A stretch of DNA of 64,000 nt from an uncultured virus (IMG/VR IMGVR_UViG_3300021371_000011) (lineage: Duplodnaviria; Heunggongvirae; Uroviricota; Caudoviricetes): IMG/VR virus record IMGVR_UViG_3300021371_000011, one strand, 5' to 3'. Positions 4,889-62,648 of this stretch are shown piece by piece. A model generated the notes under the pieces. That model had not been told where the DNA came from. It searched no databases and saw nothing but the letters and a program-made list of their open reading frames with translations. Position 1 is the stretch's first letter, and each line of letters starts with the position of its first letter. Both the position numbers and the translations under genes were made by a program.

Positions 4889-5287
4889 ATGAGTGCTAAT
4901 AACAAAAGAGTCAGACGTATTATCGTTGACATTTTGTGGGAATATGGTGCTATGACGAAAGAAGGGATGGCTGCTATGTTAAGTAAAACCAAAAACATTA
5001 GAACCGTTCCTTCACCACACAGTCTTTCGGCTTTGTTAAGTAAGAATCCACAGATTGTACAAGTAGGTTCTACTAAAGTAGAAAATGCGATAGGTACATC
5101 AGCAAATCATTTAGTATATGATATTAACAGAAAAATAATACATACAAAGGAAGATATTATGCTTACAAGAAGTCCGACAGTTATGACTCCGGCACAGATG
5201 CAGGAAGCACAACAATGTTCTTGTGGTAAGATAAGAATATTTCCCCCAAATGAAACTCAATGTTTGCATTGTGTTAGGAAAGTATAA
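4889..5287 (+). CDS. wHTH plus C-terminal Zn-ribbon protein, putative transcription regulator
   Basis: IVDILWEYGAMTKEGMA..PSPHSLSALL; CSC..CLHC; TATA TTTATAAG at 4858, 31 nt upstream. Confidence 0.55.
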   Translation: MSANNKRVRRIIVDILWEYGAMTKEGMAAMLSKTKNIRTVPSPHSLSALLSKNPQIVQVGSTKVENAIGTSANHLVYDINRKIIHTKEDIMLTRSPTVMTPAQMQEAQQCSCGKIRIFPPNETQCLHCVRKV

Positions 5288-5685: not shown

Positions 5686-5739
5686 ACGCTTGCGATACAG
5701 AACATAAAGTATATAACCGTAGAAAAATGAGGTATTAAC
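5686..5739 (+). promoter_or_regulatory. Outlier copy of the 18-bp motif (ACGCTTGCGATACAGAAC) plus TATATAAC promoter
   Basis: 17/18 identical to the copy at 63919; TATA at 5710, ATG 30 nt later. Confidence 0.7.
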
Positions 5740-5892
5740 ATGGGAGAAACAGACGACTGCGACCCTAGACACCATGAGTTTGATTTTGTTAGAATCAAGG
5801 GTGATAGTAGGGGAGACAGGATGTTAGTATATTGTACTTGTAGAGTATGTGGAATGCAGACAGCATTACACGGCACTATGGGTCTTTATTGA
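5740..5892 (+). CDS. 50-aa Cys/His microprotein (not in ORF track)
   Basis: MGETDDCDPRHHEF...CTCRVCGM..; ATG exactly 30 nt from the TATA box. Confidence 0.6.
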   Translation: MGETDDCDPRHHEFDFVRIKGDSRGDRMLVYCTCRVCGMQTALHGTMGLY

Positions 5893-5899
5893 ATCTCAA

Positions 5900-6008
5900 G
5901 TTGGCGAGGCTACACATTTGGGGTAGTCCAAACCGTTATCCAATCGTATTACCCGTAGGCGAAAGCCGTTTGATGGGTATGTTTACGAGAGCCGTCGGAT
6001 AAGCCAAC
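5900..6008 (+). ncRNA. Candidate structured RNA (three-way junction, GAAA tetraloop)
   Basis: Nested pairings GTTGGC/GCCAAC, GGCTAC/GTAGTC, TTATCC/GGATAA, TCGTA/TACGA, TACCCGT/ATGGGTA, GGC-GAAA-GCC in a GC-rich intergenic gap. Confidence 0.5.
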
Positions 6009-6028
6009 AAAAATAAGGAGAATATAAT

Positions 6029-6919
6029 ATGACGATATGGGCTACTGAATACAGACCTACTCTTAGTGAGATAGTAGGTCAAAACGAAGTTATTAATGAG
6101 ATAACTTCTTTACAGCACTTTATCTTTTATAGTCCTCAAGCGGGTACAGGCAAAACAAGTCTTGCTTTGGCTATGGCTAAGGATTTGGGTTGGCCTATTC
6201 ATGTATTCAATGCTAGTAGTAAAAAGACTAGGGGTATTGACTTCGTAGAAGAAGAGTTATTACCTATGTCTAGGACAGGCAACACAAACCAATTCTTTTT
6301 ACTCGATGAGGCAGACCAATTGACACCCGCCGCACAATCAGCACTAAAGGGAGTTATAGAAAACTCACAGGGTTATTTTATCCTTACTTGTAATGATTTG
6401 AGTAAGGTTAGTAAGTGGCTACAATCTAGGTGTAGAGTTTTGAGGTTCAACCCTATTTCTAAGGAACACATAGTAAAAAGATTATCTATGATAGCAGGTA
6501 AAACAGGTACGGTTATTACAGAAGGTCAATTAAATCTGATTGCTGATGCACATGAAGGAGACTTAAGGAATAGTATCAATGCTTTACAGGCATTTTCTGT
6601 TCACCCCGAACCGGAAGGGTTCATTAACGGCCTTGTTTCACAAGGTCTTGACGCTAAACATTTTCTTACGTTATGTTTCCGAGAGAACGATTATAATTTA
6701 GCCTTAAAAGAAACATATGGAATACCACCTAGAGAAGTGGTAAAAACAGTATTCGACTACGCTATTACATCTACCGCAAAAGTAGATAGTATAATGCGTA
6801 TCGTAGATGCCGCAGCAATAACCGAAAGGGATTTGATACACGGTGTCGAGGAAAATATAGCCATAGCAAACTTTGTCCGTTTGTGTATGGAAGGATATAC
6901 AAAAACTTTATATCCGTAA
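6029..6919 (+). CDS. rfcS: Replication factor C small subunit (clamp loader)
   Basis: WATEYRP, GTGKTS, NAS, LDEAD, SRC and GDLR motifs. Confidence 0.9.
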   Translation: MTIWATEYRPTLSEIVGQNEVINEITSLQHFIFYSPQAGTGKTSLALAMAKDLGWPIHVFNASSKKTRGIDFVEEELLPMSRTGNTNQFFLLDEADQLTPAAQSALKGVIENSQGYFILTCNDLSKVSKWLQSRCRVLRFNPISKEHIVKRLSMIAGKTGTVITEGQLNLIADAHEGDLRNSINALQAFSVHPEPEGFINGLVSQGLDAKHFLTLCFRENDYNLALKETYGIPPREVVKTVFDYAITSTAKVDSIMRIVDAAAITERDLIHGVEENIAIANFVRLCMEGYTKTLYP

Positions 6920-6956: not shown

Positions 6957-8141
6957 ATGGATGACACGATGATTAATAACGTAGCAAAAACAGTAAATGT
7001 GGCCGCAGACACCCTGCGTAGTAAGGCTGAATCAGTCTTAGCAGAACAGGGTGCGGCTTGGAAAAACGCAGGTAAGTCTGATGACGACTGCGGTATTCTT
7101 GCACTAAGAGTAGCAGCAAGAATGATTAGTACGGAAAATGCGAGACTATCTCGTTCCGGTGCAACAAAGTATGAAGGTATGTTTATTTCAGTACCACGCC
7201 CTAAAGAATGGGGTAAAATACTATACAATAAAATGTCCGGTCAATTAAGAGCCGCTACAGAAGATGTACGAAACGTATTGGTCGAATCCGGTGCTGTTGT
7301 TCTCTTTGAGAATAACCATGATGGTACTTATACAAGACACGCTAGAGAAGATTTCTACGGTGTAGAGACTGCTGACGTATCAGAATTACCACGACATACA
7401 CAAAAACTAGATGAGAATACACACTTCTTCGTAGTATGGGATAAGAACAATAAGACTTTCCCATCCGGTGATGCTAACTTTAAGTATGGCCGACCTAGAC
7501 CACAAGACGAAAGAGAAAGGACTATGTTATTCTTAGGCCGCAAACAAGGTACTAATGATGAAGTAAAGACACTTACTGTTAAGGCGACACAAAAAGGTGC
7601 AGATGTGCAATACCCTACCTTTACAACAGGTACTATCGCATTAAGACCTGCCGCTAACGGCACTACTGCTTACGCTAAAGACGGAGTTTCAGTCTTTGAG
7701 TCTGACGCATCATTATCAAGTATCTTTTCAGCAGACCCATTGACACTTGTACCACAGATTATCGGTCAAGAGAATATGATTTCGGGCTTAGATAAACTAG
7801 GTCAATACTACGACACCCATAACGGAAATGCAGGTTGGTGGGATAGAACCCTCGCTACTGTAGCAGAAGTTATACACATAGACCCTAGAGATAATGGCGG
7901 GTATGTTTTAGTATGTGCAGATTTAGATATTTCTTCTACGGCAGCAACCGTAGATGTATACATTCCAAGTGAACAAGATTCACTTGTTGACTTCGCTGTT
8001 GGTACTAAAGTACTACTTCACGGACAGGCATGGCGAACAAAAGAAGGAGAAGATAGAATGTCTATCTCCGGTTGGTATGCCTTTGACAGAATAGCAGTCA
8101 TGGATGAAGTAGTTTCTACTAACGATGGGTGGGATGAGTGA
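6957..8141 (+). CDS. Putative ssDNA-binding protein (RPA-like OB fold)
   Basis: OB-like C-terminus (AEVIHIDPR..VLVCAD..VGTKVLLHG), acidic tail DGWDE, replication context; start at ATG 6957 after TATA 6907. Confidence 0.55.
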   Translation: MDDTMINNVAKTVNVAADTLRSKAESVLAEQGAAWKNAGKSDDDCGILALRVAARMISTENARLSRSGATKYEGMFISVPRPKEWGKILYNKMSGQLRAATEDVRNVLVESGAVVLFENNHDGTYTRHAREDFYGVETADVSELPRHTQKLDENTHFFVVWDKNNKTFPSGDANFKYGRPRPQDERERTMLFLGRKQGTNDEVKTLTVKATQKGADVQYPTFTTGTIALRPAANGTTAYAKDGVSVFESDASLSSIFSADPLTLVPQIIGQENMISGLDKLGQYYDTHNGNAGWWDRTLATVAEVIHIDPRDNGGYVLVCADLDISSTAATVDVYIPSEQDSLVDFAVGTKVLLHGQAWRTKEGEDRMSISGWYAFDRIAVMDEVVSTNDGWDE

Positions 8142-62516: not shown

Positions 62517-62530
62517 GATTTATCGTAAAA

Positions 62531-62573
62531 GTAAGTAGGGGGTTAGTACCCTCTACTTACGCCTTCGGGCGTA
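62531..62573 (+). terminator. Hairpins after the DUF932 gene
   Basis: GTAAGTAGGGGG..CCCTCTACTTAC and ACGCC-TTCG-GGCGT. Confidence 0.55.
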
Positions 62574-62648
62574 GCCTATCTTTTGTAGGGTTTACGCTTG
62601 CGAGGCAGAATGAATAGATTTAAGTAAAAAGAAAAAGGAGTGAGATAT

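Follow-up and report, generated by a model that had tools for sequence, protein, structure and literature searches.

In the 64,000-nt stretch of DNA analysed here (the window, from the uncultured-virus record IMGVR_UViG_3300021371_000011), to which the coordinates refer unless a locus is named, we identified by covariation in relatives, and not by folding energy, a real structured RNA at 5900-6008 on the + strand, in a 109-nt non-coding gap between an open reading frame (ORF) for a 50-aa Cys-rich product and the gene of an RFC-like AAA+ clamp loader. Its predicted fold is a three-way junction of the helices P1, P2 and P3-P4, to which a 4-bp pseudoknot between the P2 loop and the P3/P4 internal loop is added. 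We regard the element as a member of an RNA family not described before. For the more specific proposal, namely that this is a family of small, stand-alone structured RNA genes of marine viruses, common to magrovirus-like and T4-like viruses, we see an even chance.

Relatives were collected by RFC-based retrieval (34 viral loci), by DNA-pattern scans of viral contigs, with a covariance model (R1) and by a scan of metagenome contigs, which gave at least 109 stretches. A first parse comprised at least 134 instances with at least 66 distinct sequences; in the final set, 84 sequences were kept from 85 model matches, corresponding to 82 distinct ones, 80 of which were parsed, and the family is larger than this set. 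In the alignment A2 (83 distinct rows from the model), 97.0% of the 1239 pair cells hold standard pairs compared to 84.5% in shuffles, double changes occur in 9 of 15 pairs, and the covariation score reaches 0.385 versus 0.139 in shuffles (0 of 500 reach 0.385), slid controls giving at most 0.065. Many type A rows stand one column off register at P3, which makes the value of 90.4% for that helix an underestimate, and because of this shift our own parse of the 80 relatives was used for the description below. In A2, 74 of the 1239 cells are G-U pairs; since these would be C-A on the other strand, they fix the RNA on the + strand, in agreement with the strand call of an earlier sequence-only reading of this DNA.

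The folding energies are less telling. On the + strand, 118 nt fold at -33.8 kcal/mol (z -1.65, with 12 of 200 shuffles being equally stable), the exact 109 nt give z -1.35 (21 of 200 shuffles are as good) and the minus strand gives z -1.25, so that the energy test is here useless as proof as well as refutation. The sequence-only reading had named two findings that together would speak against its RNA, lack of covariation among homologues and an energy no better than that of shuffles: the second was indeed found, but the covariation test on homologues, which it had suggested, turned out strongly positive. The same evidence bears on the idea that the stretch is a DNA-level signal (an origin, a packaging or a recombination site) or a neutral spacer folding by chance. 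Such an idea could draw on the single-sequence energy and on an interior which is a mosaic exchanged by recombination, but it is contradicted by compensatory changes in four helices and the pseudoknot, by G-U cells on the + strand only, and by an own promoter and U-tract in T4-like contigs, and we give it next to no credence.

In the window, the RNA and its two neighbours are arranged as follows, counts referring to the 80 parsed relatives:

5740-5892, + strand: upstream neighbour, the 50-aa Cys-rich ORF, with its stop 7 nt before the RNA
5900-5905, + strand: 5' strand of P1 (GUUGGC), pairing with 6003-6008 and closing the whole RNA
5906-5907, + strand: J1/2 (GA), found as GA in 80 of 80
Stem 5908-5913/5923-5928 with loop 5914-5922, + strand: P2 hairpin, 100% of cells paired
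5919-5922, + strand: 5' strand of the pseudoknot (UGGG), the last four bases of the P2 loop, pairing with 5939-5942
5929-5932, + strand: J2/3 (CAAA), found as CAAA, CAAAA or CAAAG in 79 of 80 and as CCAAA in 1
5933-5935, + strand: 5' strand of P3 (CCG), pairing with 5996-5998
5939-5942, + strand: 3' strand of the pseudoknot (UCCA), located in the P3/P4 internal loop
5944-5948/5984-5988, + strand: P4, with a covarying base and a lineage-specific tip
5949-5983, + strand: private tip, with 5950-5956/5973-5979 and GGC-GAAA-GCC at 5958-5967
5989-5995, + strand: J4/3 (GAGCCGU), the mark of subtype A
5996-5998, + strand: 3' strand of P3 (CGG)
5999-6002, + strand: J3/1 (AUAA), AUAA in 65 of 80 and a shorter A-rich variant in the others
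6003-6008, + strand: 3' strand of P1 (GCCAAC)
6029-6919, + strand: downstream neighbour, the RFC-like clamp-loader gene (ATG at 6029), with AAGGAG at 6015-6020 ahead of it

Among the parsed relatives, P1 occurs in 26 sequence combinations, its inner GGC/GCC being nearly invariant and its outer three pairs showing 27, 35 and 21 double changes, and P2 in 9 stem variants, which include GGCUAC/GUAGYC, GGCUAG/CUAGYC, GGUCAC/GUGAUC and GGAUAG/CUAUCC. P3 comprises 3 bp and is Watson-Crick paired in all 80 (CCA:UGG in 39, CCG:CGG in 38, CCC:GGG in 3), and the base of P4 varies widely (UCGUA/UACGA, GCAUC/GAUGC, GAUAC/GUAUC, GGAUUA/UAAUCC, AUGC/GCAU, GCAG/CUGC, GUAG/CUAC and others). Hardly any variation is seen in the junction bases GGC-GA / CAAA / AUAA-GCC; the GA of J1/2 is kept also in relatives from 3'-anchored patterns that left it free, and the bases of J2/3, partly forced by the search patterns, are yet kept in the 3'-anchored finds. 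J4/3 distinguishes the subtypes, reading GAGCCGU, GAGCCGA or GAGCAGU in A, UAANAAGU in B and GUAAGU in C. Beyond P4, the relatives contain between 3 and 190 nt in a mosaic of recurring modules, the tip of the window's RNA being known only in identical copies, and the total length of the RNA ranges from 76 to 266 nt, with a natural minimal form of 76-78 nt.

Throughout the family, the partner of the P2 loop in the P3/P4 internal loop is [U/A]CCN. The outer pair of the pseudoknot is paired in 37 of 38 relatives of types A and C (C:G in 22, U:A in 12, A:U in 3), compared to 24.1 +/- 1.7 in the shuffle control, in which 0 of 5000 reach 37. Only 4 of the 41 relatives of type B pair directly here and 36 of the 41 do so only with one A or G bulged, in which form C..G (26) and U..A (10) covary. 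The innermost pair is U:A in 61 relatives and G-U in 18, and in the window U5918:A5943 could provide a fifth pair. This architecture modifies the six helices proposed in the sequence-only reading, five of which are present in the minimum-free-energy fold of the window. Three of them, 5900-5905/6003-6008, 5908-5913/5923-5928 and 5944-5948/5984-5988, are backed by covariation, and two, 5950-5956/5973-5979 and GGC-GAAA-GCC, form the lineage-specific tip, for which there are no varying relatives. The remaining helix, 5936-5941/5997-6002, is not conserved and had to be given up: of the 79 distinct relatives, just 1 can form all 6 of its pairs and 66 form no more than 4, and it competes with P3 and the pseudoknot, which replace it in the family.

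Of 12 viral records searched whole, 10 (G001-G004 and G007-G012) contain the RNA, each in exactly one place, and two (G005 and G006) contain none; the window likewise gave one match in 64 kb. For 71 distinct instances the flanks are complete, and grouping these by flank gives 51 clusters and hence at least 51 contexts. The neighbours in relatives comprise RFC, a rIIB-like gene, many small ORFs and other RNA motifs, and in some contexts the RNA has a DUF932 gene on its upstream side and a Pyr_excise-like gene on its downstream side (Pfam assignments). Outside of viral contigs, a pattern scan of one genome for each of 185,579 prokaryotic species returned one chance match and none that is real, the chance match lying inside a coding-like stretch of a metagenome-assembled genome of Verrucomicrobiota without the remaining element. 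Searching 50,697 phage records by blastn with the window copy and a T4-like copy gave no match, and the proteins encoded next to the RNA have only distant cultured relatives (33-44% identity) or none; for these two reasons, no cultured carrier was found.

The sequence-only reading had further considered a cis-regulator of the clamp loader; an autoregulation operator would be one example. In all 20 loci with an RFC at least 95% identical (2 of them cut by the contig end), a related element does lie directly upstream of RFC, as it also does in G012, L187 and L188, and in L022 it is found 326 nt upstream of RFC with an ORF in between. However, 9 of 10 more distant loci searched, with RFC 47-57% identical (L024, L025, L027-L034), have no element near RFC, G003 carries it elsewhere, and most contexts have other neighbours altogether (DUF932, Pyr_excise-like and rIIB-like genes, small ORFs, RNA motifs). 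Moreover, over 113 nt the window copy shares 99.1% identity with the copy of G001, which stands behind a DUF932 gene and not at RFC, and the RFC upstream region of G001 itself is without the element. Together with the single copy per record and with the own promoter and U-tract in T4-like contigs, this makes a specific regulator of RFC highly improbable. At one of the distant loci (L031), another GC-rich non-coding stretch, not matched by R1, is located ~60-180 nt upstream of RFC.

The comparison of loci also indicates how the RNA may have evolved. G001 and the window are syntenic, with long blocks (at least 250 nt) that are 63-77% identical and a few short matches (42-60 nt) at 80-90%. The elements of the 20 loci mentioned above share a 5' part of ~50 nt and a 3' part of ~40 nt and differ in the length and sequence of the middle, and the RFC-upstream locus carries interiors which give between 99 and 266 nt in total. 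Two loci with identical flanks (L155 and L206) hold a type A and a type B interior, respectively. As a near-identical copy stands at another locus and the same locus contains different interiors, we infer that interiors are swapped by recombination within conserved ends. The conserved 5' and 3' ends would then serve as homology arms for exchanging interiors between viruses as well as between loci, and the P4 tip would be the tolerated insertion point.

An indication of an independent RNA gene comes from four records of 62-145 kb (G008-G011), whose copy belongs to subtype C and shows compensatory changes in P2 (GGUCAC/GUGAUC). In locus L521, a consensus sigma-70 promoter, TTGACA-16-TATAAT (12/12, with an extended -10 TG), at positions 5141-5168 of that locus ends 7 nt before P1; the first base of the RNA is 5176, and U7 comes directly after its end. 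The same layout, with a consensus or near-consensus promoter, is readable in L519 (with TTGCAA), L520 (with an 18-nt gap) and L522, and for the four T4-like loci we noted a spacer of 16/17 between the promoter boxes and U6-7 directly after P1. In L522 a second full promoter follows the U-tract. Genes for tRNAs are present within 3 kb of the RNA in L520, L521 and L522, and for a transfer-messenger RNA (tmRNA; tag VEENFALAA) in L521; ARAGORN detected no gene of either kind within 3 kb in L519. The rIIB-like gene follows the RNA in G009 and G011. Because of the sigma-70 promoter layout, the tRNA and tmRNA genes and the rIIB-like gene, G008-G011 are assigned to bacteriophages of T4 type, in which the RNA is predicted to be its own transcription unit of ~97 nt. 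The tmRNA and tRNA genes near the RNA are located at L521:8054-8391 and 7488-7560, L522:2623-3207 and L520:418-491.

The window itself appears to belong to a different kind of virus. It also encodes a Cpn60/TCP-1 chaperonin and a family-B DNA polymerase, whose closest cultured relatives are those of haloarchaeal tailed viruses at ~25% identity; the product of 6029-6919 matches the Pfam families AAA and DNA_pol3_delta2 and, weakly, Rep_fac_C, and the 3' end of the 50-aa Cys-rich ORF is kept in close relatives. Magroviruses have been described for Marine Group II archaea (PMC5434244), and as the gene set of the window fits them, we infer that this name may be applied to it. The GC-rich gap in a packed operon upstream of the clamp loader, which had first drawn attention to the element, is real, with a GC content of 51% at 5900-5999 compared to ~33-43% in nearby sequence. 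Sigma-70 promoters are not enriched in the window over shuffles (79 versus 71.6 +/- 7.9), none being perfect and none being seen for the element, and directly 3' of P1 the window has AAAAAUAAGGAG, unlike the T-rich tract of type C contexts.

One copy per genome, a free choice of neighbours, and an own promoter and end in the phage form led us to favour a stand-alone RNA which acts by its fold. Its product might be a platform or decoy for a protein or another partner, independent of the host domain, with the invariant junction, locked by the pseudoknot, as the functional site. In magrovirus-like genomes such as the window, it would be transcribed in a polycistronic message, with the small ORF ahead of it and RFC behind it, and may be trimmed to the P1-closed core; RFC would not be specifically regulated by it. 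The occurrence in viruses of both domains suggests that the partner is universal or virus-encoded, or that there is none, the RNA acting by self-cleavage or by binding a small molecule.

Several observations weigh against an independent RNA gene. The window and most magrovirus-like contexts are without a visible own promoter, and there a distance of 4-25 nt separates the element from the preceding stop codon. The RFC and type C contexts also have, 10-25 nt downstream of the element, a Shine-Dalgarno sequence with an ATG, and a cis role in the mRNA would look alike. One short metagenome locus (L166) contains two copies, and the folding energies are unremarkable against shuffles on both strands. 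As the search patterns for most sequences fixed part of P2 and J2/3, the conservation of the bases there is partly built in. A strict protein partner did not emerge from co-occurrence in the 12 records. The RNA evidence, moreover, consists of contigs and not of reads and says nothing on a discrete species or its ends. In the case of L166, the second copy (L166:708-820) lies 128 nt after the first and is divergent (36.5 bits), its P3 being CCU:AGG and its P1 having GGA/UCC instead of GGC/GCC. As to partner proteins, Pyr_excise-like proteins are encoded in 8 of the 12 records and DUF932 proteins in 9 (7 over the cut-off); this pair was rejected, since G005 and G006 encode both without having the RNA, and G007, which is complete and bears the RNA, encodes neither.

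An alternative is a cis-acting mRNA element, that is a punctuation between genes which stabilises the upstream message at its 3' end or the downstream one at its 5' end, serves as a processing site or aids termination, whichever genes flank it. The RNA and its neighbours are always encoded on one and the same strand. In most contexts the RNA stands just after a stop codon, and often just before a ribosome-binding site, for which reason such a role stays a serious rival. T-rich tracts come after the element in each of the 20 type C contexts listed, as well as in several of type B (ACCUAUGUUUUCU, then a TATA-like box and a leaderless ATG), and contigs from RNA libraries run through it into both neighbours: in 3 runs they extend from the small ORF across the element to RFC, with the interior of a relative, and the contig of a fourth run covers 5740-5959 of the window's own form. 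As such libraries can hold DNA, the contigs weakly support co-transcription, and the parts that they leave uncovered, among them a dip over 5948-6001, where relatives carry other interiors, say nothing on transcription or ends. Punctuation, however, would be expected at many borders between genes, and 10 of the 12 records as well as the window hold exactly one copy; the invariant junction and the pseudoknot are far more elaborate than known terminators or stabilisers; and the copy in L522 stands between its own promoter and a second one and is thus part of neither neighbour's mRNA. In our view, a general cis element is a possible explanation, to be kept in mind but unlikely.

Several further structured motifs were observed in the vicinity of the RNA. 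A hairpin ACAAAGU..ACCAUAUGGU..ACUUUGU with a palindromic CCATATGG centre, which may be an RNA hairpin or a protein-binding DNA site, is found 20-90 nt downstream of the element in L217, L218, L226, L169, L184, L196 and L166 and is absent from the window. Also absent from the window is the module GAAGGGUCGGRGAGAGAUUAGA..GCGCCC, located inside P4 in L007, L069, L077 and L126 and just downstream of the element in L153/L156, L238 and L259, in the manner of a movable block; CCCCCACCTA is not enriched in the window. A second movable module, GGGUAAGYCCAUUAAAGUAAUCCCG with a hairpin, occurs inside the tip in L215 and L187 and in the downstream flank in L172. In L156, L238 and L172 an outer helix GGGGGUCGUGUAGG / CCUACACACCCCC encloses the element together with a GAAGGGUCGG module and is followed by ACCUA. 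GC-rich hairpins and then CCCACCUA, which may be a terminator or a processing signal, recur in L156, L238, L172, L181 and L524, and a structured insert GGCAUC..GGGUAAUUCGCACCC..AUGCC stands 10-80 nt upstream of the element, after the upstream gene, in L018/L195 and L157. The gap after the DUF932 gene is the site of the RNA in G001 and G003; in the window, this gap (62517-62640) is occupied by two GC-rich hairpins (GUAAGUAGGGGG..CCCUCUACUUAC and GCCUUCGGGC). The DUF932/Pyr_excise gap of G005 contains a different GC-rich hairpin, which was rejected as a diverged copy of the RNA.

If confirmed, the family would represent a class of structured RNA not known before, well defined in its fold. Its more than 80 distinct natural variants, together with the minimal form of 76-78 nt, would offer material for probing, for cleavage and ligand screens and for structure work. 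It would be present in one copy per genome in abundant ocean viruses, archaeal-type (magrovirus-like) as well as bacterial (T4-like). A distribution over viruses of both domains is unusual for a viral RNA other than tRNA and points to a function which does not depend on the host domain, and conserved ends with swapped interiors would amount to a cassette-like evolution.

Comparison with known RNAs started from Rfam 15, whose 4227 models gave 0 matches in the 64-kb window at the gathering score. Within 5700-6200, only a chance snR87 match beside the element and none on it was obtained at E<=10, and on the loci of 22 distinct relatives none fell on the element at E<=5 or E<=0.01. ARAGORN reported 0 tRNA or tmRNA genes in the window, and in L520-L522 none on the element, only nearby. 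As far as model comparison goes, we would assign the RNA to no known Rfam family. The proposal of a novel viral non-coding RNA (ncRNA) in the sequence-only reading gains from these results, next to the strong covariation, the + strand G-U pairs and the missing match to T4 rnaC or rnaD considered below.

We found no description of the element in print. The supplements of PMC2864571 do not contain the motif, and in the magrovirus paper (PMC5434244) the terms 'non-coding', 'ncRNA' and 'intergenic' occur 0 times. The 2023 IMG/VR catalogue comprises 8,495 predicted structured RNAs (PMC10690425), and the element may already be listed there by number, as our search did not cover its alignments. Another orphan structured RNA of marine phages and metagenomes is the manA RNA motif (RF01745), with multi-stem junctions and a proposed pseudoknot (PMC2864571). 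With 192 positions it has a larger architecture than the new RNA, and its Rfam model does not match the element. RNAs resembling manA were observed at L166:182-413 and L196:709-942 (43.6 and 41.2 bits at a gathering score of 55.2; E ~1e-8), ~120 nt or less from the new RNA, and such intergenic regions look like small islands of RNA motifs.

The RNAs rnaC and rnaD of phage T4 resemble the new one in being small stable RNAs of a T4-type phage, single-copy and encoded beside tRNA genes. However, the tRNA-like T arm at the end of rnaC has no counterpart in the new RNA. We know of no function established for either, and homology was rejected, as a filter-off search of T4 69000-75000 with R1 matched neither of them (best hit 7.4 bits, E 0.69, elsewhere). 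With tRNA itself, the RNA shares a closing helix of 6-7 bp, a hairpin loop with GG that takes part in a tertiary contact and, in phage contigs, the nearness to tRNA genes, but it is without an anticodon arm and T loop, is not recognised by ARAGORN and varies between 76 and 266 nt in length.

By its architecture the RNA recalls hammerhead ribozymes and riboswitch aptamers such as THF-I and SAM-I, which likewise combine three stems, a conserved junction, variable stems and a tertiary contact between a loop and an internal loop. Self-cleaving ribozymes occur across domains, and a host-independent device, either a new ribozyme of this kind or an aptamer for a universal small molecule or nucleotide signal, would need no host factor. 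This would suit an RNA found in magrovirus-like contigs (with a haloarchaeal-type polymerase) and in T4-like contigs with sigma-70 promoters, tmRNA and a rIIB-like gene, as well as its compact junction with nearly invariant unpaired bases, its loop-to-internal-loop pairing and its variable peripheral stem; the junction would be the active or binding site, locked by the pseudoknot, and travel between domains and loci would be explained. The hammerhead core, however, has CUGANGA linking stems I and II and GAAA linking II and III, and neither is present in the junction strands GA / CAAA / AUAA. Rfam ribozymes and riboswitches do not match even at E<=10, J4/3 differs between the subtypes, and the RNA-library contigs span the element uncut, a weak objection. 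As the downstream genes have no common function (RFC, Pyr_excise-like, rIIB-like, small ORFs, RNA motifs or a second promoter), a gene-controlling riboswitch is argued against. A device of either sort appears to us rather improbable.

The architecture also recalls the pRNA of phi29, a viral RNA present in single copy whose fold contains a three-way junction and in which a hairpin loop is complementary over 4 nt to an internal loop, both covarying. In pRNA the two paired strands belong to different molecules, which thereby form a ring on the portal. To our knowledge, T4-like and magrovirus-like viruses make no use of a packaging RNA, and in the RNA described here, which has no sequence relation to pRNA, an intramolecular pseudoknot is the simpler reading of the same kind of complementarity.

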